Position numbers and translations under genes: made by a program. From Escherichia coli (GTDB taxonomy: Bacteria > Pseudomonadota > Gammaproteobacteria > Enterobacterales > Enterobacteriaceae), in assembly GCF_036507355.1 (NCBI RefSeq), contig NZ_AP027877.1: DNA of 64,000 nt; one strand, given 5' to 3'. The notes below the pieces were generated by a model. It was not told the origin of the DNA and ran no database searches. It worked only from the letters and a program-made list of their open reading frames with translations. Position 1 is the first letter of the stretch. The number at the start of each line of letters is the position of its first letter. This document shows, one piece after another, positions 12,754 to 47,189 of the stretch.

Positions 12754-14007
<1,254 letters not shown>

Positions 14008-14008
14008 C

Positions 14009-14067
<59 letters not shown>

Positions 14068-15234: not shown

Positions 15235-17226
15235 ATGTCCTCACGTAAAGAGCTTGCCAATGCTATTCGTGCGCTGAGCATGGACGCAGTACAGAAAGCC
15301 AAATCCGGTCACCCGGGTGCCCCTATGGGTATGGCTGACATTGCCGAAGTCCTGTGGCGTGATTTCCTGAAACACAACCCGCAGAATCCGTCCTGGGCTG
15401 ACCGTGACCGCTTCGTGCTGTCCAACGGCCACGGCTCCATGCTGATCTACAGCCTGCTGCACCTCACCGGTTACGATCTGCCGATGGAAGAACTGAAAAA
15501 CTTCCGTCAGCTGCACTCTAAAACTCCGGGCCACCCGGAAGTGGGTTACACCGCTGGTGTGGAAACCACCACCGGTCCGCTGGGGCAGGGTATTGCCAAC
15601 GCAGTAGGTATGGCGATTGCAGAAAAAACGCTGGCGGCGCAGTTTAACCGTCCGGGCCACGACATTGTCGACCACTACACCTACGCCTTCATGGGCGACG
15701 GCTGCATGATGGAAGGCATCTCCCACGAAGTTTGCTCTCTGGCGGGTACGCTGAAGCTGGGTAAACTGATTGCGTTCTACGATGACAACGGTATCTCTAT
15801 TGATGGTCACGTTGAAGGCTGGTTCACCGACGACACCGCAATGCGTTTCGAAGCTTACGGCTGGCACGTTATTCGCGACATCGACGGTCATGACGCAGCA
15901 TCCATCAAACGCGCAGTAGAAGAAGCGCGCGCAGTGACTGACAAACCGTCCCTGCTGATGTGCAAAACCATCATCGGTTTCGGTTCCCCGAACAAAGCCG
16001 GTACTCACGACTCCCACGGTGCGCCGCTGGGTGATGCAGAAATCGCTCTGACCCGCGAACAGCTGGGCTGGAAATACGCACCGTTCGAAATCCCGTCTGA
16101 AATCTATGCGCAGTGGGATGCGAAAGAAGCAGGCCAGGCGAAAGAAGCTGCCTGGAATGAGAAATTCGCGGCTTACGCCAAAGCCTTCCCGCAGGAAGCG
16201 GCTGAATTCACCCGTCGTATGAAAGGTGAAATGCCGTCTGACTTCGACGCGAAAGCGAATGAATTCATTGCGAAGCTGCAGGCTAACCCGGCGAAAATCG
16301 CCAGCCGTAAAGCGTCGCAGAATGCTATCGAAGCGTTCGGCCCGCTGTTGCCGGAATTCCTCGGCGGCTCCGCTGACCTGGCACCGTCTAACCTGACCCT
16401 GTGGTCTGGTTCTAAAGCAATCAACGAAGATGCTGCGGGTAACTACATCCACTACGGTGTTCGCGAGTTCGGTATGACCGCGATTGCTAACGGTATCTCC
16501 CTGCACGGTGGCTTCCTGCCGTACACCTCCACCTTCCTGATGTTTGTCGAATACGCACGTAACGCCGTACGTATGGCTGCGCTGATGAAACAGCGTCAGG
16601 TGATGGTTTACACCCACGACTCCATCGGTCTGGGCGAAGACGGCCCGACTCACCAGCCGGTTGAGCAGGTCGCTTCTCTGCGCGTGACCCCGAACATGTC
16701 TACATGGCGTCCGTGTGACCAGGTTGAATCTGCAGTAGCGTGGAAATACGGCGTTGAGCGTCAGGACGGCCCGACCGCGCTGATCCTCTCCCGTCAGAAC
16801 CTGGCGCAGCAGGAGCGTACTGAAGAGCAACTGGCAAACATCGCGCGCGGTGGTTATGTACTGAAAGACTGCGCCGGTCAGCCGGAACTGATTTTCATCG
16901 CTACCGGTTCAGAAGTTGAATTGGCGGTTGCTGCCTACGAAAAACTGACTGCTGAAGGCGTGAAAGCGCGCGTGGTGTCCATGCCGTCTACCGACGCATT
17001 TGACAAGCAGGATGCGGCTTACCGTGAATCCGTACTGCCGAAAGCGGTTACTGCACGCGTTGCTGTAGAAGCGGGTATTGCTGACTACTGGTACAAGTAT
17101 GTTGGCCTGAACGGTGCTATCGTCGGTATGACCACCTTCGGTGAATCTGCTCCGGCAGAGCTGCTGTTTGAAGAGTTCGGCTTCACTGTTGATAACGTTG
17201 TTGCGAAAGCAAAAGCGCTGCTGTAA
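15235..17226 (+). CDS. tktA: transketolase 1
   Basis: ORF 15205-17226; start at ATG 15235 gives the 663-aa product [52 protein letters not shown]... Confidence 0.96.
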
Positions 17227-17289
17227 TCAGTAAGACGTTTTGTGAGAAGGGCCGCGAAAGCGGCCCTTTAGATTATTGGTAAAGTGCGC

Positions 17290-17400
<111 letters not shown>

Positions 17401-17420
17401 TTGCTTTTGCCATCACTCTC

Positions 17421-17447
17421 AAGGGCCGCGAAAGCGGCCCTTTTTTT
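17421..17447 (+). terminator. rho-independent terminator (GC hairpin plus T7), second copy of the tktA-distal hairpin
   Basis: AAGGGCCGCGAAAGCGGCCCTTTTTTT; the stop codon of the convergent SPFH gene overlaps the T-run. Confidence 0.65.
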
Positions 17448-18354
17448 ACTTAGTAGAGATAAACGGAACTGTGCTGCCGGGGATCATGGTATCGGGCAGT
17501 TTACCGTCCCAACGTTCGGCAGTGGTGAGGGCTACAAGTCCGGGATTATCCCGCAGAGCTTCACCGCGCAGGCGGATTGCTTCTGCTTCAGCCGCACTTT
17601 TTAAACGAATAGTTTCAGCCTCTGCCGCGCCTCTTACGCGAATAGTTTCCGCTTCTGCTTTGGCTGCCGCCAGTTTACTGTCTGCTTCTGCCTGGGCCTG
17701 AGTTACCGCTATTTGCGCCTGGATTTTCTCTGTTTCCAGATTTTGCTTACGCGTGGCAATGGCGACTTCTGCTTTCATTCGGTCTTCAATCGACTTTTCA
17801 TAAGCGTCAGAAAAATCAATATTTTCAATCTGGACCCCGTCAATTACCACTGGCCCAACAACGGCTTTGCGCATGGCATTTTGCAGATCCTGAACCAGTT
17901 TTGTACGATCCTGTACAGCGCTGATGGCGGTATATTGGCCGAAAACGTTCTCCAGTTGAGTTGGCAACTGACGGACAATCAGACGATCTTTTAATGCTTC
18001 AATGGTGTTGTAGGTGGTATAAACCGCGCCTGCTTCTGAAGGTTTAATGTGGAAGCTGACTGATACTGTCATTTGTGCCGGTTGCTGGTCGCGGCTGTAG
18101 GCCTGTAATCCCTGATAGACCACAGCCTGATTACGCGTGGAAATTTTCTCCACGCTTTCCATAAACGGGATCTTAAAACCCAGACCCGGCTCGGCAACTT
18201 TTACGATTTTTCCGTAGCGCAGCAAAATGCCGCGTTCACCTTCATTAACGGTGTAATACGAGAGAAATGGCAGCACAACCACGGCAAGCACGCCAATGGC
18301 GATAGCAAGAGATTTTTGTGGGCGAAATGAGGTTAATGAAACAGGTGCTTTCAT
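17446..18354 (-). CDS. prohibitin-like SPFH/band-7 membrane protein (302 aa)
   Basis: ORF MKAPVSLTSFRPQKSLAIAIGVLAVVVLPFLSYYTVNEGERGILLRYGKIVKV...: N-terminal TM helix, PHB domain, C-terminal Ala/Glu-rich coiled coil with tandem AEAE[TA]IR[VL][RK] repeats; not one of the K-12 SPFH genes I know (hflK, hflC, qmcA, yqiK). Confidence 0.75.
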   Translation of the reverse strand: MKAPVSLTSFRPQKSLAIAIGVLAVVVLPFLSYYTVNEGERGILLRYGKIVKVAEPGLGFKIPFMESVEKISTRNQAVVYQGLQAYSRDQQPAQMTVSVSFHIKPSEAGAVYTTYNTIEALKDRLIVRQLPTQLENVFGQYTAISAVQDRTKLVQDLQNAMRKAVVGPVVIDGVQIENIDFSDAYEKSIEDRMKAEVAIATRKQNLETEKIQAQIAVTQAQAEADSKLAAAKAEAETIRVRGAAEAETIRLKSAAEAEAIRLRGEALRDNPGLVALTTAERWDGKLPDTMIPGSTVPFISTK

Positions 18355-18731
18355 GACAATCTTCCTTGAGTAAAGTGTGGGAATATGTCACATGAGATGA
18401 GGAGAAAACAGCCGACAGGTGAGAATTCAGAATCTATAAAGGGGTATAGCGAAAAAACATTGCATTAGAAAAGTATGTTTTCGAACATTCAATAAATAAA
18501 TAGAGATATGCATCACAAATACAATAACAAACAAAATGTTGATTTTGTGATAAATATAACAAATACAAAGTTGACTTTAAAAATATCAATTTCATATTGT
18601 TGTTATTTAAGGTTTTATTATTTTGGTTTATGGGGTTTTTCTTCTCGCGTACCCAATTGCTTTCATTAAACCGCACGAGTATTTTATTTTTACCGCCTGA
18701 CGGTACCCTAAAAATAAAATAAGGATAATTT

Positions 18732-19175
18732 ATGCGGCTTAGTGATTATTTTCCAGAATCATCAATCTCAGTTATACATTCAGCAAAAGATTGGCAGGAA
18801 GCTATCGATTTCTCGATGGTATCATTGCTGGATAAAAACTATATCAGCGAGAATTACATTCAGGCAATTAAAGATTCCACCATTAACAATGGCCCTTATT
18901 ATATTCTCGCACCAGGCGTGGCAATGCCTCATGCGCGACCGGAATGTGGGGCGCTTAAAACCGGGATGTCTTTGACATTACTTGAACAAGGTGTTTATTT
19001 TCCGGGGAATGACGAACCAATTAAATTACTCATCGGACTCTCTGCTGCCGATGCCGATTCGCACATTGGCGCTATTCAGGCGTTAAGTGAATTACTGTGC
19101 GAAGAAGAAATACTCGAACAACTCTTAACAGCATCATCAGAAAAACAATTAGCGGACATTATCAGCCGCGGATAA
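18732..19175 (+). CDS. cmtB: cryptic mannitol-type PTS enzyme IIA component
   Basis: 147-aa ORF MRLSDYFPESSISVIHSAKDWQEAIDFSMVSLLDKNYISENYIQAIKD... Confidence 0.9.
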   Translation: MRLSDYFPESSISVIHSAKDWQEAIDFSMVSLLDKNYISENYIQAIKDSTINNGPYYILAPGVAMPHARPECGALKTGMSLTLLEQGVYFPGNDEPIKLLIGLSAADADSHIGAIQALSELLCEEEILEQLLTASSEKQLADIISRG

Positions 19176-19202
19176 TTACTCTCTCCTCTACAGGATAATA
19201 TT

Positions 19203-20591
19203 ATGGAAAACAAGTCTGCTCGTGCAAAGGTCCAGGCTTTTGGGGGCTTTTTGACTGCAATGGTCATCCCCAATATTGGTGCTTTTATTGCCTGGGGTTT
19301 TATTACTGCGTTATTTATTCCCACCGGTTGGCTGCCTAACGAACATTTCGCCAAAATTGTCGGCCCGATGATTACCTATTTATTGCCCGTGATGATTGGT
19401 TCTACCGGTGGTCATCTGGTCGGCGGTAAACGCGGCGCGGTCATGGGCGGAATAGGTACTATTGGTGTGATCGTCGGCGCAGAGATCCCGATGTTCCTTG
19501 GCTCAATGATTATGGGGCCGCTCGGTGGTCTGGTCATAAAATATGTTGATAAGGCACTGGAAAAACGCATACCTGCCGGTTTTGAGATGGTTATCAATAA
19601 CTTCTCATTAGGTATCGCGGGGATGCTCCTTTGCCTGCTGGGTTTTGAAGTGATCGGCCCGGCGGTGTTAATTGCCAATACTTTCGTCAAAGAGTGTATT
19701 GAGGCGCTGGTACATGCGGGTTATCTGCCTCTGCTGTCAGTCATCAATGAACCGGCGAAAGTGCTTTTCCTTAATAATGCGATCGATCAGGGCGTCTATT
19801 ATCCGCTGGGAATGCAACAGGCTTCGGTTAACGGTAAATCCATCTTCTTTATGGTGGCCTCTAACCCAGGTCCGGGCCTGGGGCTGCTGCTGGCGTTTAC
19901 CTTGTTTGGTAAAGGGATGAGTAAACGTTCTGCGCCCGGGGCGATGATTATTCACTTCCTCGGTGGGATCCACGAACTGTATTTCCCATATGTGCTGATG
20001 AAGCCGCTGACTATTATTGCCATGATTGCGGGCGGTATGTCTGGCACCTGGATGTTTAACTTACTGGACGGTGGTCTGGTGGCTGGCCCAAGTCCGGGGT
20101 CTATCTTTGCTTACCTGGCGCTGACGCCGAAAGGTTCGTTCCTGGCGACAATTGCCGGTGTTACGGTAGGTACCCTGGTGTCCTTTGCTATCACTTCGCT
20201 GATACTGAAGATGGAAAAAACGGTGGAAACGGAGAGCGAAGATGAGTTTGCTCAGTCAGCCAATGCGGTTAAGGCGATGAAACAAGAGGGTGCATTCTCG
20301 TTAAGCAGGGTTAAGCGTATCGCCTTTGTTTGCGATGCGGGGATGGGCTCCAGTGCGATGGGCGCGACCACCTTCCGTAAACGCCTGGAAAAAGCGGGGC
20401 TGGCAATTGAAGTAAAACATTACGCCATAGAAAACGTGCCTGCGGATGCGGATATCGTCGTTACTCATGCCAGTCTGGAAGGGCGCGTGAAACGTGTGAC
20501 GGATAAACCACTGATATTGATTAACAACTATATTGGCGATCCAAAACTCGACACTTTATTTAATCAATTAACCGCCGAACATAAACACTGA
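19203..20591 (+). CDS. cmtA: cryptic mannitol-type PTS enzyme IICB component
   Basis: 462-aa ORF MENKSARAKVQAFGGFLTAMVIPNIGAFIAWGFITALFIPTGWLPNEHF... Confidence 0.9.
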   Translation: MENKSARAKVQAFGGFLTAMVIPNIGAFIAWGFITALFIPTGWLPNEHFAKIVGPMITYLLPVMIGSTGGHLVGGKRGAVMGGIGTIGVIVGAEIPMFLGSMIMGPLGGLVIKYVDKALEKRIPAGFEMVINNFSLGIAGMLLCLLGFEVIGPAVLIANTFVKECIEALVHAGYLPLLSVINEPAKVLFLNNAIDQGVYYPLGMQQASVNGKSIFFMVASNPGPGLGLLLAFTLFGKGMSKRSAPGAMIIHFLGGIHELYFPYVLMKPLTIIAMIAGGMSGTWMFNLLDGGLVAGPSPGSIFAYLALTPKGSFLATIAGVTVGTLVSFAITSLILKMEKTVETESEDEFAQSANAVKAMKQEGAFSLSRVKRIAFVCDAGMGSSAMGATTFRKRLEKAGLAIEVKHYAIENVPADADIVVTHASLEGRVKRVTDKPLILINNYIGDPKLDTLFNQLTAEHKH

Positions 20592-20605
20592 TTACAGAGG
20601 TAAAA

Positions 20606-21883
20606 ATGAAAACCAAAGTTGCTGCTATTTATGGCAAGCGGGATGTCCGTCTGCGCGAATTTGAACTGCCAGAAATTACCGATAATGAATTACTGGTGAG
20701 TGTGATTTCTGACAGCGTCTGTTTATCCACCTGGAAAGCGGCGTTACTCGGTAGTGAACATAAACGCGTACCCGACGATTTAGAAAATCATCCGGTCATT
20801 ACCGGGCATGAATGTGCCGGGGTTATTGTCGAAGTGGGTAAAAATCTCACTGGCAAATATAAAAAAGGCCAGCGTTTTGTATTGCAACCGGCGATGGGGT
20901 TACCAAGCGGATATTCAGCGGGCTACAGCTACGAATATTTTGGCGGCAATGCCACTTATATGATTATTCCCGAAATTGCCATTAATTTGGGCTGCGTATT
21001 ACCGTATCACGGCTCTTATTTTGCTGCGGCGTCGCTGGCAGAGCCTATGTGCTGCATTATTGGTGCTTATCATGCCAATTATCACACCACGCAATATGTT
21101 TATGAGCATCGCATGGGCGTCAAACCTGGCGGCAATATTGCACTGCTGGCGTGTGCAGGTCCGATGGGCATTGGCGCTATCGATTACGCCATTAACGGCG
21201 GCATACAACCGTCGCGGGTGGTGGTGGTCGATATCGACGACAAACGTCTGGCGCAGGTACAGAAGCTGCTGCCGGTGGAACTGGCGGCCAGTAAAGGCAT
21301 TGAGCTGGTGTATGTGAATACCAAAGGGATGAGCGATCCTGTCCAGATGCTGCGGGCGCTGACAGGAGATGCCGGGTTCGATGACATTTTTGTTTATGCG
21401 GCGGTGCCTGCTGTCGTTGAGATGGCTGATGAATTACTGGCGGAAGATGGCTGTCTGAACTTCTTTGCCGGGCCGACGGATAAAAACTTCAAAGTGCCGT
21501 TTAATTTCTACAACGTTCATTACAACAGCACGCACGTCGTCGGTACATCCGGCGGTTCAACGGACGACATGAAAGAGGCGATTGCCCTTAGCGCCACTGG
21601 GCAGTTACAGCCGTCGTTTATGGTCACGCATATCGGTGGGCTGGATGCGGTGCCTGATACCGTGCTCAATCTGCCGGACATCCCTGGCGGTAAAAAACTC
21701 ATTTATAACGGCGTCACCATGCCGCTCACCGCCATTGCCGATTTTGCCGAAAAAGGCAAAACCGATCCGCTGTTTAAAGAGCTGGCGCGGCTGGTTGAGG
21801 AAACGCACGGCATCTGGAATGAGCAGGCCGAGAAATATCTGCTGGCGCAATTTGGTGTTGATATTGGGGAGGCCGCGCAATGA
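20606..21883 (+). CDS. yggP: zinc-type alcohol/polyol-phosphate dehydrogenase-like protein YggP
   Basis: 425-aa ORF MKTKVAAIYGKRDVRLREFELPEITDNELLVSVISDSVCLSTWKAALLG... Confidence 0.88.
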   Translation: MKTKVAAIYGKRDVRLREFELPEITDNELLVSVISDSVCLSTWKAALLGSEHKRVPDDLENHPVITGHECAGVIVEVGKNLTGKYKKGQRFVLQPAMGLPSGYSAGYSYEYFGGNATYMIIPEIAINLGCVLPYHGSYFAAASLAEPMCCIIGAYHANYHTTQYVYEHRMGVKPGGNIALLACAGPMGIGAIDYAINGGIQPSRVVVVDIDDKRLAQVQKLLPVELAASKGIELVYVNTKGMSDPVQMLRALTGDAGFDDIFVYAAVPAVVEMADELLAEDGCLNFFAGPTDKNFKVPFNFYNVHYNSTHVVGTSGGSTDDMKEAIALSATGQLQPSFMVTHIGGLDAVPDTVLNLPDIPGGKKLIYNGVTMPLTAIADFAEKGKTDPLFKELARLVEETHGIWNEQAEKYLLAQFGVDIGEAAQ

Positions 21884-22845
21884 TGTCCCTGGCGTGGCCA
21901 TTATTTCGCGTTACGGAACAGGCAGCGTTGGCTGCCTGGCCGCAAACCGGATGTGGCGACAAAAATAAAATTGATGGCCTGGCGGTCACCGCGATGCGCC
22001 AGGCATTAAACGACGTCGCTTTTCGTGGACGAGTGGTTATCGGCGAAGGAGAAATTGACCATGCGCCGATGCTGTGGATTGGCGAAGAGGTGGGCAAAGG
22101 CGATGGGCCAGAAGTCGATATCGCGGTTGATCCCATTGAAGGCACGCGGATGGTGGCGATGGGGCAGAGCAATGCGCTGGCGGTCATGGCTTTCGCCCCT
22201 CGAGATAGCCTGTTACATGCGCCCGATATGTATATGAAAAAGCTGGTTGTTAATCGACTGGCTGCCGGGGCGATTGATCTGTCTTTGCCTCTGGCGGACA
22301 ACTTGCGTGACGTGGCGCGGGCGTTAGGTAAACCGCTGGACAAGCTGCGCATGGTTACGCTGGATAAACCGCGTCTGAGTGCCGCGATTGAGGAAGCAAC
22401 ACAGCTGGGGGTGAAAGTTTTTGCCCTGCCGGATGGCGATGTCGCCGCCAGCGTGCTGACCTGCTGGCAGGATAATCCTTACGACGTGATGTACACCATC
22501 GGCGGCGCGCCGGAAGGCGTGATTTCTGCCTGTGCAGTCAAAGCGTTAGGCGGAGATATGCAGGCGGAATTAATCGATTTTTGTCAGGCTAAAGGGGATT
22601 ACACGGAAAATCGGCAGATTGCAGAGCAGGAGCGCAAGCGTTGCAAGGCAATGGGCGTTGACGTTAACCGTGTGTACTCGCTCGACGAACTGGTGAGGGG
22701 GAACGATATCCTCTTTAGCGCTACGGGCGTGACGGGCGGTGAGCTGGTGAACGGTATCCAACAGACGGCGAATGGGGTGCGGACGCAGACATTACTGATC
22801 GGCGGCGCGGACCAAACGTGTAATATAATAGACTCCCTGCATTGA
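21880..22845 (+). CDS. yggF: class II (GlpX-type) fructose-1,6-bisphosphatase YggF
   Basis: 321-aa ORF MMSLAWPLFRVTEQAALAAWPQTGCGDKNKIDGLAVTAMRQALNDV...; 4-nt overlap with yggP. Confidence 0.88.
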   Translation: MMSLAWPLFRVTEQAALAAWPQTGCGDKNKIDGLAVTAMRQALNDVAFRGRVVIGEGEIDHAPMLWIGEEVGKGDGPEVDIAVDPIEGTRMVAMGQSNALAVMAFAPRDSLLHAPDMYMKKLVVNRLAAGAIDLSLPLADNLRDVARALGKPLDKLRMVTLDKPRLSAAIEEATQLGVKVFALPDGDVAASVLTCWQDNPYDVMYTIGGAPEGVISACAVKALGGDMQAELIDFCQAKGDYTENRQIAEQERKRCKAMGVDVNRVYSLDELVRGNDILFSATGVTGGELVNGIQQTANGVRTQTLLIGGADQTCNIIDSLH

Positions 22846-22866
22846 TGGTGATCTATCGGAAGACCA

Positions 22867-23376
22867 ATGGCGACGCTGACAGAAGATGATGTGCTTGAGC
22901 AACTGGATGCACAGGACAATTTATTTTCATTTATGAAAACTGCGCATTCTATTTTGCTCCAGGGGATACGCCAGTTTCTGCCGTCGCTGTTTGTCGATAA
23001 CGATGAAGAGATCGTGGAATATGCAGTGAAGCCGTTACTCGCCCAAAGCGGCCCGCTTGACGATATTGATGTTGCACTGCGTTTGATTTATGCGCTGGGA
23101 AAAATGGATAAATGGCTGTACGCCGATATCACCCATTTTTCCCAGTTCTGGCATTACCTGAACGAACAGGATGAAACGCCCGGATTTGCCGATGACATGA
23201 CCTGGGATTTTATCAGCAACGTCAATAGCATAACCTGCAATGCGACGCTCTATGACGCGTTGAAAGCGATGAAGTTCGCCGATTTCGCCGTCTGGTCAGA
23301 GGCGCGTTTTAGCGGGATGGTCAAAACGGCGCTGACGCTGGCAGTAACGACCACCTTAAAGGAATTAACGCCGTGA
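22867..23376 (+). CDS. yggD: MtlR-like regulatory protein YggD
   Basis: 169-aa ORF MATLTEDDVLEQLDAQDNLFSFMKTAHSILLQGIRQFLPSLFVDNDEEIVEYAV... Confidence 0.85.
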   Translation: MATLTEDDVLEQLDAQDNLFSFMKTAHSILLQGIRQFLPSLFVDNDEEIVEYAVKPLLAQSGPLDDIDVALRLIYALGKMDKWLYADITHFSQFWHYLNEQDETPGFADDMTWDFISNVNSITCNATLYDALKAMKFADFAVWSEARFSGMVKTALTLAVTTTLKELTP

Positions 23377-24086
23377 AAATTGAATTAACGGTGAATGGGC
23401 TGAACGTGCAAGCGCAGTACCATGATGAAGAGATAGAACGCGTGCATAAACCGTTGCTGCGTATGCTGGCGGCCTTACAGACGGTAAATCCGCAGCGCCG
23501 AACCGTGGTTTTTCTTTGCGCTCCGCCGGGGACGGGTAAATCTACCCTAACCACCTTCTGGGAATATCTCGCGCAACAAGACCCGGAGCTGCCCGCTATT
23601 CAGACGCTCCCGATGGATGGTTTTCACCATTACAATAGCTGGCTGGATGCGCATCAATTGCGCCCCTTCAAAGGCGCACCAGAGACATTTGACGTTGCGA
23701 AACTGGCGGAAAATCTGCGCCAGGTCGTGGAAGGGGATTGTACGTGGCCGCAGTACGATCGACAAAAGCATGATCCTGTTGAAGATGCGTTGCACGTTAC
23801 CGCACCACTCGTCATCGTCGAAGGAAACTGGTTGTTGCTGGACGACGAGAAGTGGTGCCAGCTTGCGCAATTTTGTGATTTCTCGATCTTTATCAATGCG
23901 CCAGCTACTGCGTTGCGGGAACGACTGGTGGGGCGCAAGCTGGCGGGAGGGTTATCGCTGGCAGACGCAGAAGCTTTTTATGACCGTACCGACGGGCCGA
24001 ATGTTCGCCGGGTGCTGGAAGAGAGTCTGCCTGCTAATTTGACTTTAATGATGACCGCTACGGGTGAATATCGTCTGGTTGATTAA
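23373..24086 (+). CDS. yggC: P-loop kinase-like protein YggC
   Basis: 237-aa ORF MKIELTVNGLNVQAQYHDEEIERVHKPLLRMLAALQTVNPQRRTVVFLCAPPGTGKSTL... with Walker A; 3' end overlapped convergently by the following ATPase gene. Confidence 0.85.
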   Translation: MKIELTVNGLNVQAQYHDEEIERVHKPLLRMLAALQTVNPQRRTVVFLCAPPGTGKSTLTTFWEYLAQQDPELPAIQTLPMDGFHHYNSWLDAHQLRPFKGAPETFDVAKLAENLRQVVEGDCTWPQYDRQKHDPVEDALHVTAPLVIVEGNWLLLDDEKWCQLAQFCDFSIFINAPATALRERLVGRKLAGGLSLADAEAFYDRTDGPNVRRVLEESLPANLTLMMTATGEYRLVD

Positions 24087-24735
24087 CGTTCCTGATTAGA
24101 CCATCTTCCAGTCGCACCACACGAGAGAAATGACGCCGGGTAAATGCGGCGTCATGACTGATTGCTACGACGCTCGTGCCTCGCTGGCGGCACTTCTCCA
24201 GCCAGCTTTCAAACACGCTCAACCAATTTTCGTCAAAATCCCGACTCGGCTCGTCCAGCAGCAATAGTGGCGGAGAGAGTGCTTCCAGGCAGGCGACGGC
24301 GACCATCCGTCGCTGCGCACTATGCAGATCCAACGGATGCGCGCTGGCAGTGTCTGCTAACTGACAACATTGCAGGGCAGCATGGGTACGTTGAGTGATT
24401 TCATCCGCCGGGCATTTTTGCAGTTTCAAACCAAATGCGATCTCGTCGGCGACGGTGCTATGAAAAAGCTGGTTTTCCGCTTCCTGAAACAGTACGCCAA
24501 TCTTTGCCGCGCGCTGGCGGTTTTTCAGGTTTTTCATCGCCTGTTGTTGCAGCATAACCGTACCGGCTGTGGGCGTAAGAAGACCTGCCATTACTCGTAA
24601 CAGCGTCGATTTCCCTGCGCCATTGTCGCCGGTCAGCGCCAACCATTCACCTTGTTTGAGTTGCAGAGAAATGTCGCAAAGACAATCCGTTGCCGCGCCA
24701 GGCCAGCGATAAGATATCTGATTTAACGTTAACAT
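24058..24735 (-). CDS. ECF/CbiO-type ABC transporter ATPase, second subunit, degenerate signature motif
   Basis: ORF 24058-24768; likely start MLTLNQISYRW at 24735; Walker A GDNGAGKST, Walker B LLLLDEP, H-loop SHD, signature LSGGQ replaced by LHSAQ. Confidence 0.75.
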   Translation of the reverse strand: MLTLNQISYRWPGAATDCLCDISLQLKQGEWLALTGDNGAGKSTLLRVMAGLLTPTAGTVMLQQQAMKNLKNRQRAAKIGVLFQEAENQLFHSTVADEIAFGLKLQKCPADEITQRTHAALQCCQLADTASAHPLDLHSAQRRMVAVACLEALSPPLLLLDEPSRDFDENWLSVFESWLEKCRQRGTSVVAISHDAAFTRRHFSRVVRLEDGLIRNVNQPDDIHP

Positions 24736-25412
24736 AGTGGCTGGAGTGCTCCGTTTTGCAATTGCCACGCTTGCTGGCAGTAGTTCAGGAAAGGTGTGCG
24801 ATGACGTTCAAAAAGAATAATCAGCGAACCACGTTCAAACGCCCAGTGTTGTAAGCGCTGCAACAGCATTTCGCTGGCCTGCGGCGTCAGGCGGCTAAAG
24901 GCTTCATCAAGAATTAATAGCTTTGGCTGCATCGCGATGGCGCAGGCGATGACCACGCGCTGTGTCTCTCCACCGGAGAGTGTTGCCGGGTGACGATGGC
25001 GCAACGGCTGGCACTCGGTCAGAGTCAGGGCGGCATCAATCCGCGCCATAATCTCTGCTTCAGCAAGACACAGATTTTCTGGCCCAAAGGCAACTTCTTC
25101 TTCCACGCTAAAGGTACAGCCGGAGAGCTGCAAATAAGGCGATTGCTGGACGAGCTGGATGGTGGCGGATTGTTCATTAAGCGGGAGATGCCCAATGGGC
25201 GTACCGAGGAGCGTCCCCGTGCCTGTTATCTCTCCTGGCAGAAAGTCCGGATACCAGCCCGCCATCAGCTGTGCCAGCGTACTTTTGCCACTGCCGTTGT
25301 CACCAAAGATGGCGACCATCCCCGGTTTGACATAGTGAAAGTCATAACAGAACGGAGGATGCGTTGAGTGTGTCGGGCAATAACGGAACTGTTCTAACGT
25401 AACCATATCCAC
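24729..25412 (-). CDS. ECF/CbiO-type ABC transporter ATPase, first subunit
   Basis: 227-aa ORF MDMVTLEQFRYC...; Walker A GDNGSGKST, signature LSGGETQRV, Walker B LLILDEA; overlaps the next ATPase gene by 7 nt. Confidence 0.78.
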   Translation of the reverse strand: MDMVTLEQFRYCPTHSTHPPFCYDFHYVKPGMVAIFGDNGSGKSTLAQLMAGWYPDFLPGEITGTGTLLGTPIGHLPLNEQSATIQLVQQSPYLQLSGCTFSVEEEVAFGPENLCLAEAEIMARIDAALTLTECQPLRHRHPATLSGGETQRVVIACAIAMQPKLLILDEAFSRLTPQASEMLLQRLQHWAFERGSLIILFERHRTPFLNYCQQAWQLQNGALQPLC

Positions 25413-26101
25413 GCTCCGAATTCTGTCAGCATCAGCAAGATCATGGTGTAACGCGCTACGCGTTGTAGGGTGCTATCGGCTGGTGCCCACAACGTTGTTC
25501 GTCGGTTGTGGATCCGAAATGCCCGCATATCCAGCGCCGCACCACGGACAGCAAGATCGTTTAGCGCATTGTGTGTTAGCGGAATAATTAACGCGGACAT
25601 CGCACGTAAACGCTGATACCAGCCCTCATCCAGCGGCACGCCGCGGGCACGCTGCGCTTCATGAATAATCGCTAATTGCCGTTTTAACTGCTCAACGACC
25701 AATAACGGCCCGGCAAACAGATAAGCGACGCCTGGCGGCAGGCGAGAAGCAAACAGAGTGCGGATAAAACATTGCACGGGGACGTACTGCATCCACAACT
25801 GTGAGGTTGAAACAATCGCCAGAATCCGCAACCAGAGCGTAATAGCATGCGTCCAACGCTCCGGCGAACGCGGCGTGCCGCTTAGCCATTCTGTTAGCCA
25901 GCCACCGTGTACCAGCCACAGCCCGGCTCCCAGCGAGAACATCAGCCAGGCGACATATTTTGCCCGCCGCCGCGTGGCCTTTAGCGCAATAAGGCAAAAA
26001 AAGGTCGCCGCGCTATAGATCGGCAAAATGGTCTGCGCGGGCAGGATAAGCGTGGTGCAGGCCGCCAATGCCCATAGTGTTAATGAGGTAAATGGATGCA
26101 T
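25394..26101 (-). CDS. ECF transporter transmembrane T component (CbiQ/EcfT-like)
   Basis: 235-aa polytopic ORF MHPFTSLTLWALAACTTLILPAQ... with Arg-rich ...EAQRARGVPL... segment typical of EcfT; its ATG directly abuts the stop of the upstream gene. Confidence 0.7.
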   Translation of the reverse strand: MHPFTSLTLWALAACTTLILPAQTILPIYSAATFFCLIALKATRRRAKYVAWLMFSLGAGLWLVHGGWLTEWLSGTPRSPERWTHAITLWLRILAIVSTSQLWMQYVPVQCFIRTLFASRLPPGVAYLFAGPLLVVEQLKRQLAIIHEAQRARGVPLDEGWYQRLRAMSALIIPLTHNALNDLAVRGAALDMRAFRIHNRRTTLWAPADSTLQRVARYTMILLMLTEFGAWIWLR

Positions 26102-26680
26102 TTAGCGCACGGCAGCCATTGCCGGAAAATGGCGCGTGGTGCGAATCGGCAGCTGGCGCAGTAAAAGCCAGACAATCACCGCTGTAAGAGTTTTATCGAC
26201 CAGGTTCGCGCCTATCACCGTAATCGCCACCGACTCCACCAGGTTTTGCCCCATCGAGTGCATCCAGGCAACGAACAAATCGGCTCCGCTACCGGTGACA
26301 CCGCCGAACAGCGCAGTACGCAGCGGTACAGCGACGACCGTTACCGCAAGCGTAATAATCACGCCGCTGACAACGACTTTTGGTAGGGTGCGAAACCAAC
26401 CCGCTCGCGCCAGCCAACCGGCGACCAGGCCGATGACCATCGCGACGGGTGCAAATGCGGCGGCGATCGGGTCGGTCAGCAATCCCCAGAGTAAATTGGT
26501 CAGTAAGCCGGTCAGCATTCCGATCACCGGACCAAGCAGTACCGCGCTAATAAGTGTGCCGATGGAGTCGAGAAATATAGGTAATTTGACCATGCTGGCC
26601 AGTTGCCCGCCGATCATATTGATGGCGATAGATATAACGATCAACACCAGTGCCTGACTGGAAAAGTGGCTACGCGCCAT
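26102..26680 (-). CDS. ECF transporter substrate-capture S component (predicted)
   Basis: ORF 26102-26779; likely start MARSHFSSQALVLIVISIAINMIGGQLASMVKLPIFLDSIGTLISAVLLGP... at 26680; about 6 TM helices; resembles ThiW/YkoE-type S components; substrate unknown. Confidence 0.6.
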   Translation of the reverse strand: MARSHFSSQALVLIVISIAINMIGGQLASMVKLPIFLDSIGTLISAVLLGPVIGMLTGLLTNLLWGLLTDPIAAAFAPVAMVIGLVAGWLARAGWFRTLPKVVVSGVIITLAVTVVAVPLRTALFGGVTGSGADLFVAWMHSMGQNLVESVAITVIGANLVDKTLTAVIVWLLLRQLPIRTTRHFPAMAAVR

Positions 26681-26702
26681 AAGAAAACCTCTCTGAAAGT
26701 AG

Positions 26703-27134
26703 TTATTTAACGGGGGAAATATGCAACTCGTCGTAACCAGAAAGCGCGCAAGGTTGGCGGCTAAACGCCAGTTCCTCAAAGCTACCGATCACCAGTTCAA
26801 GCGTGGTCCGCACGGTACAGCCGGGCATCATATGACCGCCAAGCATCGTGCCGTGTGGATCGGAAACGCAGAGATGAAGATGCTCACCACTCTGTTCCAA
26901 CGTGCCGTTTAGTGAGATCACTTCGAATGTACCGTTCAGGAGCGTGGTGCCTTCTTGCCCGGCATAGCGCAAGGCGATGTCAGTCAGGCTACCGGTACAG
27001 CCTGCAATCCAGGCGGCATGAAGTTGCTGCTGCTGTGCAAAAGCGTGTAGCTGGGAAAAAACTTCCTGCCCGGGGAGGAGGCGCAGTGCGTAAAAGCGTG
27101 CGGAGGAAGAATATGGGTAGGGCAATGTCATCAT
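26703..27134 (-). CDS. DUF296 / PPC-domain protein (143 aa), first gene of the ECF operon
   Basis: ORF MMTLPYPYSSSARFYALRLLPGQEVFSQLHAF...GEHLHLCVSDPHGTMLGGHMMPGCTVRTTLELVIGSF... fits the PPC/DUF296 pattern. Confidence 0.65.
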   Translation of the reverse strand: MMTLPYPYSSSARFYALRLLPGQEVFSQLHAFAQQQQLHAAWIAGCTGSLTDIALRYAGQEGTTLLNGTFEVISLNGTLEQSGEHLHLCVSDPHGTMLGGHMMPGCTVRTTLELVIGSFEELAFSRQPCALSGYDELHISPVK

Positions 27135-43427: not shown

Positions 43428-43568
43428 TGCTGTTGTCTGCTCCTGGTAAATGCTTTTTCCTGCACTATGACACAATTTTGTGTCAGGTTGCATATACCGA
43501 AGCCGTCGGCGGGTAACATTTGTATTCGTGGTTAAACGCGCAGCTTAAAAGATCAGGGATTTGCGCTA

Positions 43569-43799
43569 ATGCATTTCGCTCAGCGAGTTCGCGCCCTGGT
43601 TGTGTTGAATGGCGTGGCGTTATTGCCTCAATTTGCCTGTAAACAGGGGCTTGCGAACGGTGAATTGGTGCGCCTGTTTGCACCGTGGAGCCGCATACCC
43701 AGACCATTGTATGCTTTATTTGCGGGGCGAAAGGGGATGCCCGCCATTGCGCGATATTTTATGGATGAGTTAACCACGCGGCTTGCCAACGGGGTCTGA
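43569..43799 (+). pseudogene. yqfE: LysR-family regulator remnant (C-terminal fragment only), yqfE-like
   Basis: 76-aa ORF MHFAQRVRALVVLNGVALLPQFACKQGLANGELVRLFAPWSRIPRPLYALFAGRKGMPAIARYF... resembles the C-terminus of a LysR substrate-binding domain; no HTH-bearing N-terminus. Confidence 0.55.
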
Positions 43800-46164: not shown

Positions 46165-46310
46165 AGCATGGGGCTGTAACGGTAAAGCCCTCACCGAAGC
46201 GAGGGCTTGAAGGAGAAGGGTTATGATGCGACTTGTCATCATACTGATTGTACTGTTACTCATAAGTTTCCCAGCTTATTAACAGTCAGTCTCAGGGGAG
46301 GAGTAATCCT
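46165..46310 (-). ncRNA. sibC: SibC-type antisense sRNA (antitoxin of ibsC); boundaries approximate
   Basis: The ibsC toxin ORF lies in the serA-ygfA intergenic region where Sib antisense RNAs are known; the RNA itself is inferred from that context, ends not determinable here. Confidence 0.45.
46223..46282 (+). CDS. ibsC: type I toxin IbsC (19-aa hydrophobic peptide)
   Basis: ATG 46223 to TAA 46280-46282 encodes MMRLVIILIVLLLISFPAY; I recall the K-12 peptide with SAY rather than PAY at the end. Confidence 0.7.
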   Translation: MMRLVIILIVLLLISFPAY

Positions 46311-46382
46311 CCCTTACCCTTACTCACTAAATTAGGTTAAAGAATCAACGATGTCAATCAGGGCGATGCAGGTGTGTCGCCC

Positions 46383-47003: not shown

Positions 47004-47189
47004 AGGGAATCTCCGAGATGCCGCCGCAGGCTGTAACCCTTGAACCCTTGGTTCAAGGTGAATGTGTCGTCGCAGTTTTAAGGCTTCTCGGACGGACCGA
47101 GCATGCTCACCAACCGCGGAGCGCCACATTCTTGTGGTATGAAATATCGGCTCAGGGGACTGGCCCGCTTGCGAACACCTCAGAGAAAT
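47004..47189 (-). ncRNA. ssrS: 6S RNA
   Basis: Reverse complement reads ATTTCTCTGAGGTGTTCGCAAGCGGGCCAGTCCCCTGAGCCGATATTTCATACCACAAGAATGTGGCGCTCCGCGGTTGGTGAGCATGC...GGCATCTCGGAGATTCCCT, the 6S RNA sequence; lies between zapA and ygfA as in E. coli. Confidence 0.9.

Follow-up and report, generated by a model that had tools for sequence, protein, structure and literature searches.

The described systems closest to the cmtBA-yggPFDC gene cluster of Escherichia coli are the mtl, sor, fru, and glp operons. The mtlA-mtlD-mtlR operon has in common with it a mannitol-class permease of the phosphotransferase system (PTS), an MtlR-family protein, and control by the cAMP receptor protein (CRP); in contrast to mtl, the cluster has a separate enzyme IIA (EIIA; CmtB) and no MtlD, and carries a SorE-type dehydrogenase, a P-loop kinase, and a fructose-1,6-bisphosphatase (FBPase) instead. 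In the sorbose pathway, the substrate of SorE is a ketose-1-phosphate, whose keto group beside the phosphate ester is reduced. The Klebsiella pneumoniae sor operon (sorC-sorD-sorFBAM-sorE) and the cluster each place a SorE-family enzyme downstream of the PTS genes (45% identity), but the sor operon has a mannose-class four-component PTS, a short-chain dehydrogenase/reductase (SDR), SorD, for the second step, and the regulator SorC, and has neither a kinase nor a bisphosphatase. Conversion of a PTS product through a ketose-1-phosphate to a 1,6-bisphosphate by a dedicated kinase is the logic that the cluster would share with fruBKA, although the kinase proposed for this step, YggC, is of the P-loop type and not related to FruK, a PfkB-family enzyme. 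The likeness to glpFKX lies in a pathway-linked GlpX-type FBPase, giving hexose-6-phosphate when carbon enters at or below fructose 1,6-bisphosphate (FBP). Here, the cluster was analyzed in a window of 64,000 nt of the E. coli contig NZ_AP027877.1 (assembly GCF_036507355.1), where it occupies positions 18732 to 24086 of the plus strand. It resembles mtl in its transporter and MtlR-like protein, sor in its dehydrogenase, and fru and glp in its logic, and is a member of none of them. The cluster is a functional core-genome operon and most likely serves one catabolic route of a mannitol-like polyol; we give about an even chance to the scheme proposed for it below.

The locus is the known, long-annotated K-12 cluster (b2934–b2928) in its usual intact state and is ordinary for E. 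coli. Its genes are cmtB (18732–19175, 147 amino acids), cmtA (19203–20591, 462 amino acids), yggP (20606–21883, 425 amino acids), yggF (21880–22845, 321 amino acids), yggD (22867–23376, 169 amino acids; database name fumE), and yggC (23373–24086, 237 amino acids, GTG start), all on the plus strand. K-12 has these genes in the identical order, with the same lengths, junctions, and start codons, no internal stop is present in any of the six open reading frames (ORFs), and amino acid identity to K-12 is 100% for CmtB and CmtA, 99.5% for YggP, 99.1% for YggF, 97.6% for YggD, and 84.9% for YggC. Relative to K-12, the window adds a prohibitin gene between tktA and cmtB and an energy-coupling factor (ECF) island between yggC and epd, and the 3′ third of yggC and the promoter region upstream of the cluster have diverged. 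A first-pass annotation, made from the DNA letters alone, had named the cluster, assigned a family to each product, and described all frames as intact; profile matches in Pfam and NCBIfam, all well above what chance would give, database annotation, and the K-12 comparison agree with it on each of these points. It had also counted three 4-nt overlaps between genes, whereas only two are present, at yggP/yggF (ATGA) and yggD/yggC (GTGA), the remaining three junctions being gaps of 27, 14, and 21 nt. A third overlap was sought, including with alternative starts at the yggF/yggD junction, and none was found. The two overlaps suggest translational coupling. An Rfam scan of the whole window returned no RNA family within the cluster, and no terminator-like site was detected 3′ of yggC in a scan of 17200–24400.

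The cluster is close to universal in the species. When a 5.9-kb region was compared with 5426 complete E. coli genomes, 5425 matched and 5381 covered 80% or more of it; the best complete-genome match was strain TUM13936 (99.3%), with RefSeq genes at the same coordinates. Intactness of the reading frames, stated by the first-pass annotation for this DNA, holds as the majority state in E. coli and not as a universal one. Insertion sequences (IS) interrupt the cluster in a few genomes, and about 560 (∼10%), including Nissle 1917 (6580–6895 of the extracted locus), have an internal yggF deletion of ∼650 bp, annotated in RefSeq as a pseudogene; yggF is full length in 4854. In comparisons with E. 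albertii, Salmonella arizonae, Citrobacter, Superficieibacter, and Buttiauxella, the ratio of nonsynonymous to synonymous substitution rates (dN/dS) was 0.02–0.16 for all six genes, with neighboring tktA in the same range, showing that the six genes are under purifying selection. Against K-12, cmtA has 19 synonymous and no nonsynonymous differences, and cmtB is identical at 444 of 444 nt. The 3′ third of yggC (23780–24086) belongs to another allele, with the nucleotide identity to K-12 dropping from 99% to 54% over the final 300 nt. These mosaic alleles, an identical cmtB beside a cmtA with synonymous differences and a yggC with a different 3′ third, suggest that the cluster is bounded on both sides by recombination breakpoints. 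Another E. coli strain in the locus set carries a CmtB that is only 89% identical.

The historical name of the system is reportedly "cryptic mannitol," as used by Sprenger in 1993, and the first-pass annotation likewise called the cluster cryptic. A cryptic operon is silent and phenotype-free in the wild type until a mutation activates it, and this cluster was found to be neither silent nor phenotype-free. The cmtB promoter is activated by cAMP-CRP, as determined by genomic SELEX and a lacZ fusion (PMC3105977), and in a 2025 study a PcmtA-gfp reporter was CRP-dependent and induced ∼6-fold by uridine (PMC12412646). In the same study, deletion of cmtA, alone among 26 transporter deletions, raised the minimum inhibitory concentration of tobramycin (PMC12412646). 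Deletion of yggF lowers fermentative growth on glycerol (PMC8719807), and cmtB is upregulated 2–3 fold in enterohemorrhagic E. coli in bovine gut contents (PMC6199705). Together with the selection data, these observations contradict the label, which can only mean that the substrate is not known and not that the cluster is silent or decaying. In that sense the first-pass annotation was right to give no established substrate, as no transport substrate assignment was found in the searchable literature on cmtA, cmtB, yggP, yggC, yggF, and yggD/fumE.

CmtB is a mannitol/fructose-class EIIA (Pfam PTS_EIIA_2, E = 1.9e-29), and CmtA combines PTS_EIIC and PTS_IIB domains (PF02378 and PF02302) as an EIICB protein, matching the NCBIfam mannitol IICBA model at 5.6e-178. 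CmtA passes the mannitol-subfamily models narrowly (TIGR00851 mtlA, 480 vs a cut-off of 468.4; NF011663, 592.9 vs 589), and the PTS permeases for mannitol and fructose form one family. His67 of CmtB lies in an MPH motif and Cys377 of CmtA in CDAGMGSS; by these motifs, the two residues are the candidate phosphorylation sites of EIIA and EIIB, respectively. CmtA is 56–68% identical to the EIICBs linked to such clusters in Vibrio and Clostridia, as compared to ∼52% for the MtlA that adjoins the cluster in Rahnella. The closer relationship to cluster-linked permeases than to MtlA suggests that the module has its own ancestry, which by these identities appears separate from that of the mtl operon.

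YggP is a zinc-type medium-chain dehydrogenase (Pfam ADH_N and ADH_zinc_N) whose homologs across E. coli, Vibrio, and Lachnospiraceae are 64–67% identical. Annotated SorE genes, detected by tblastn against plasmid records, are 44–46% identical to YggP over 97–98% of its length, and the Klebsiella match lies in a complete sor operon with a SorC-type regulator, an SDR, four mannose-class PTS genes, and sorE. Alignment of the YggP family including SorE shows invariant zinc ligands (C39, H68, E69, and E146), and YggP and SorE also have in common a NAD-fold motif with D209 and the invariant basic residues H52-K53 and K363-K364 (motifs HK(R/K) and GGKK), H305, and H310. Full-length identity, the common zinc ligands, the NAD-fold, and the basic motifs identify YggP as a SorE-family enzyme. 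The sor context of a mannose-class PTS, SorD, and SorC was absent from the window, where the PTS is of the mannitol class and neither an SDR nor SorC is encoded. YggP is therefore assigned as a paralog of SorE (L-sorbose-1-phosphate reductase) and not as SorE itself. An intragenic σ54 motif, CTGGCGGCAATATTGCA, lies inside yggP (21126–21142, plus strand) and is an exact copy of the σ54 binding motif mapped within K-12 yggP by chromatin immunoprecipitation (ChIP; PMC4591121).

YggC belongs to the NF006742 kinase family (E = 2.6e-158; 524.4 vs a cut-off of 402) and contains a Walker A sequence, GTGKST, at residue 53. It has no Pfam match above threshold, only weak hits to the phosphoribulokinase (PRK) family, and its nearest solved structure is 3c8u (1.6e-22), deposited as a "fructokinase," followed by pantothenate kinases (∼1e-9). 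By these similarities YggC is a predicted P-loop kinase of the PRK/uridine kinase/pantothenate kinase-like group. RefSeq labels it a nucleoside/nucleotide kinase family protein, and a comparative-genomics paper lists it as a predicted sugar/polyol kinase (PMC3223725). A link between the uridine kinase-like fold and induction of the cmtA promoter by uridine was set aside, as uridine also induced 13 other transporters (PMC12412646).

YggF is a class II (GlpX-type) FBPase (FBPase_glpX PF03320, E = 5.4e-121; TIGR00330, 584.7 vs a cut-off of 259.3) and matches the solved GlpX structure 1ni9 at 8.4e-111 by phmmer, making it a GlpX paralog; its solved homologs also include PDB 3roj and 5a5l. The K-12 protein, 99.1% identical, was reported to act as an FBPase by Brown in 2009, according to PMC8719807, which also describes it as less efficient. 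YggD is an all-helical protein whose MtlR-family domain spans its full length (PF05068, E = 1.8e-52; equivalog NF007455, 335.8 vs 167), and it is ∼29% identical to an MtlR homolog of Rahnella. Its structure is solved (PDB 3c8g, deposited as a "putative transcriptional regulator"), and MtlR (6kcr) is a structural relative. RefSeq and EcoCyc-derived annotation name YggD fumarase E (fumE). However, membership in the fumarase families, class I iron–sulfur or class II lyase, was not detected in Pfam and NCBIfam, where YggD hits only MtlR-type models.

To place the cluster in a wider context, 82 loci around YggP homologs, one genome per species, were surveyed and the neighbors classified by family. 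A mannitol-class EIICB was present in 58 loci. A YggC-type kinase stands beside YggP in 56, in both Proteobacteria and Firmicutes and in varied gene order, a 1-phosphofructokinase (FruK; TIGR03828, 334 bits vs a cut-off of 292) in nine, and an SDR resembling sorbitol-6-phosphate dehydrogenase in eight; the three never co-occur. The SDR-linked YggP homologs are 55–58% identical to YggP, and none has a YggC. A second pair of alternatives concerns the phosphatase, which is YggF in 20 loci of Enterobacteriaceae and related taxa and a phosphatase of the PHP family in 14 loci of Vibrionaceae; the two were never found together, and both are restricted to loci with YggC. The loci of Rahnella and Budvicia have no phosphatase gene. 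In Anaerostipes, a class II FBP aldolase (398 bits vs 343) lies directly 3′ of YggC-YggP, and in three clostridial loci a pyrophosphate-dependent phosphofructokinase, a reversible enzyme, lies near YggP. The regulator slot is filled by YggD in 38 loci (Proteobacteria) and by PRD-type (23) or DeoR (13) regulators in Firmicutes. Transketolase adjoins the module in three lineages, as tktA in Enterobacteriaceae, tal-tkt in Vibrionaceae, and a split tkt in two clostridial loci. In clostridial operons of the form mtlA-mtlR-mtlF, YggP was considered as a stand-in for MtlD; however, EIIA and YggP proved to be separated there by a 1-phosphofructokinase gene, which shifted the model to a fructose-1-phosphate route.

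Apparent "TktA" hits beside clostridial YggP-like genes were rejected as transketolases, as most are 822-amino acid fused proteins next to E2/E3 genes and belong to a different system. This recurrent clostridial cluster comprises a DeoR regulator, a YggP-like dehydrogenase, an SDR of the sorbitol-6-phosphate dehydrogenase-like type, an E2 acyltransferase, an E3 dihydrolipoyl dehydrogenase, and the ∼822-amino acid protein, which groups among the transketolase hits, presumably as a fused E1. It was seen in loci L066, L069, L070, L073, L080, L083, and L085 (Clostridia, Oscillospiraceae, and metagenome-assembled genomes of Eubacteriales), some of which add lipoate ligase or LipA/LipB together with an FSA/transaldolase-like protein. 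It looks like a 2-oxoacid dehydrogenase-like complex tied to sugar-phosphate enzymes, and we know of no described function for it.

A pathway can be proposed from these gene neighborhoods, on which each step is based. CmtB and CmtA would take up and phosphorylate a polyol to an alditol phosphate. YggP would then oxidize the carbon adjoining the phosphate ester to give a ketose-1-phosphate; mannitol-1-phosphate, for example, would yield fructose-1-phosphate. YggC may phosphorylate the ketose-1-phosphate to a 1,6-bisphosphate, the role that FruK would have in the clostridial versions of the module, and the bisphosphate would be cleaved by a class II aldolase and enter glycolysis. fbaA is located three genes past the ECF island. 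By analogy with GlpX in the glycerol operon, YggF may supply hexose-6-phosphate (fructose-6-phosphate) for biosynthesis. YggD, as an MtlR paralog, would be the pathway regulator and probably act by protein contact rather than by direct DNA binding, possibly, as the MtlR analogy suggests, by contact with HPr. Mannitol as the actual substrate is much less likely than the scheme overall. A more specific proposal, which we put forward only tentatively and hold to be somewhat less probable than the general scheme, is that YggP is a SorE-type alditol-phosphate 2-dehydrogenase, that YggC founds a class of P-loop ketose-1-phosphate kinases replacing the PfkB-type FruK, and that the module has spread as a unit among Firmicutes, Vibrionaceae, and Enterobacterales. 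The pathway hypothesis is unproven; it is a testable lead and not a result.

Several observations weigh against this catabolic scheme. K-12 strains mutated in mtlA or fruK are not known to be rescued by the cluster, and the searchable literature yielded no biochemical work on YggP or YggC. The loci of Anaerostipes in which YggC, YggP, and aldolase genes are adjacent contain no PTS genes within 5 kb, and a YggC acting as the first, polyol kinase would fit them as well. The adjacency of transketolase is not accounted for by a route from hexose to FBP. Genomes with the yggF deletion keep the other five cluster genes intact and, together with the absence of YggF from Rahnella and Budvicia, indicate that YggF is dispensable for the core function. 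In K-12, YggD showed no DNA binding by ChIP-exo, and its name fumE goes back, according to work that cites the study, to metabolomics screening in vitro (Sevin 2017). Finally, when 198 carbon sources were screened, the best inducer of the cmtA promoter was uridine and not a polyol (PMC12412646).

Alternatively, the genes may form no single pathway. An orphan mannitol-like PTS pair would then be kept by inherited synteny alone beside independently acting enzymes, with YggF as a third FBPase isozyme, YggD as fumarase E, YggC as a nucleoside/nucleotide-type kinase, and YggP as an unrelated dehydrogenase. The stand-alone activities reported for YggF and YggD, the RefSeq name of YggC, the σ54 site within yggP, the loss of yggF in ∼10% of genomes that retain its neighbors, and the uridine-induced promoter are all compatible with such an assembly. 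Inherited synteny, however, does not readily account for adjacency of YggC and YggP in 56 of 82 species of Proteobacteria and Firmicutes in different orders, nor for mutually exclusive substitutions in the kinase and phosphatase slots; the two 4-nt overlap junctions and the lack of a detectable fumarase domain in YggD also argue against it, and we regard it as unlikely, if still worth serious thought. Decay of the whole cluster into a silent remnant, useless to the cell, would suit its historical name, its lack of a known substrate, the yggF pseudogenes, and the few IS insertions. It is contradicted by the dN/dS of each gene across genera, the match in 5425 of 5426 genomes, the active CRP-regulated promoter, and the deletion phenotypes, and is highly improbable.

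Other alternatives keep a pathway and change its direction or substrate. CmtAB may import a ketose as its ketose-1-phosphate, in the way of fructose-class PTS systems, and YggP would reduce this product to an alditol phosphate in the manner of SorE acting on L-sorbose-1-phosphate; the only named relative of YggP is, after all, a reductase in a PTS pathway, the permease family includes fructose as well as mannitol transporters, and the eight clostridial loci that pair a YggP-like gene with an SDR follow sorE plus sorD logic. Yet the YggP homologs of those loci are never accompanied by YggC, a second dehydrogenase for the alditol phosphate is missing from the E. coli-type cluster, and the kinase and bisphosphatase of that cluster would be left without a role; this direction seems improbable. 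Slightly more doubtful still is a pentitol or heptitol substrate (for example, volemitol, arabitol, or a sedoheptulose-type ketose) converted through an alditol-1-phosphate and a ketose-1-phosphate to a 1,5- or 1,7-bisphosphate, from which YggF, acting as a sedoheptulose-bisphosphatase (SBPase), would release a monophosphate for transketolase and transaldolase, feeding the pentose-phosphate pathway. That substrate would give meaning to the transketolase genes that adjoin the module in Enterobacteriaceae, Vibrionaceae, and two clostridial loci, to the bifunctional FBP/SBPases among GlpX-type enzymes (PDB 3roj and 5a5l), and to the PRK-like fold group of YggC (weak Pfam PRK). On the other hand, the substituting enzymes, equivalogs of 1-phosphofructokinase and class II FBP aldolase, are hexose-specific, the tktA adjacency in two gammaproteobacterial families may be inherited synteny, and nothing connects E. 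coli with heptitol use.

Expression of the cluster would be driven from an AT-rich region (30% GC) between the prohibitin gene and cmtB (18355–18731, plus strand). The last ∼78 nt before the cmtB ATG are near-identical to K-12, whereas the sequence farther upstream is homologous but diverged and only loosely alignable. A CRP-like site, AGAGATATGCATCACA (18502–18517, plus strand; 8/10 match), aligns with the site CGTGTTGTAGATCACA of K-12 and enterotoxigenic E. coli (ETEC). CRP ChIP-seq in ETEC identified a bound site, TGTGATCTACAACACG, upstream of cmtB (PMC4287617), which also occurs in K-12 and aligns with 18502–18517 of the window. A second CRP-like site, TGTGATAAATATAACA (18546–18561, plus strand; 9/10 match), aligns with the second CRP-like site of K-12. 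The two CRP-like sites are 44 bp apart and lie just 5′ of a TTGAC motif, and this layout is kept in both diverged promoter alleles. σ70-like hexamers, a consensus match only, are present at 18571–18600 on the plus strand, as TTGACT followed after 16 nt by CATATT or after 18 nt by TATTGT. Promoter-like sites were not enriched in 17200–24400, with nine found as compared to 8.4 in shuffled sequences. The reported potentiation of aminoglycosides by uridine, cytidine, and adenosine brings the CytR/CRP regulon to mind, although this is speculation.

On the upstream flank, the prohibitin/SPFH gene (302 amino acids, Band_7; 17446–18354, minus strand) lies between tktA and cmtB in 1816 of 5426 E. coli genomes (33%) and is absent from K-12. 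The spacer after tktA (17227–17445) resembles repetitive extragenic palindromic (REP) sequence, with Rfam matches to ES036/CssrF at 17333–17375, and a hairpin, AAGGGCCGCGAAAGCGGCCCTT, occurs twice (∼17249–17270 and 17421–17442), flanking the REP stretch. On the downstream flank, the ECF island (24058–27134, minus strand) encodes the transporter, with two ABC ATPases and one T and one S component, together with a DNA-binding protein that has a PPC domain. Its ATPase gene is convergent to yggC with a 29-nt overlap, the only other gene overlap nearby. The island is found between yggC and epd in 3319 of 5426 E. coli genomes (61%), K-12 lacking it, and also 3′ of yggC in E. albertii, Citrobacter, Salmonella arizonae, and Superficieibacter.

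Elsewhere in the window, alignment with TUM13936 revealed three differences. An insertion at 5392–6817 between galP and metK contains a 442-amino acid transposase ORF (5405–6733, minus strand) and is presumably IS4, given its length of ∼1426 bp and flanking alignments that overlap by 13 bp. A second insertion of ∼1277 bp (12787–14063), between speB and loiP, contains a 326-amino acid transposase ORF (12978–13958, plus strand) and is, we presume, an IS110-family element of the IS621 type. At ∼43480–43607, between argP and rpiA, ∼3.1 kb of TUM13936 (43649–46763 of its extracted locus, L089) is missing, a stretch that encodes a ferredoxin reductase family protein, a YdgH/BhsA-like protein, an FMN azoreductase, and a partial LysR regulator. 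Rfam matches at the gathering threshold included 6S RNA (ssrS; 47006–47189, minus strand) and a Sib antitoxin RNA (46207–46357, minus strand), both ordinary E. coli features.

Four of the six cluster genes belong to the uncharacterized part of the E. coli gene set, and CmtAB, recently linked to aminoglycoside uptake, is also of applied interest. Mutual exclusion among YggC, FruK, and the SDR, and between YggF and the PHP phosphatase, reduces the substrate question to a short list of enzyme assays. If the proposed pathway is true, the cluster would represent a polyol route from alditol-1-phosphate through ketose-1-phosphate to ketose-1,6-bisphosphate that has not been described before.

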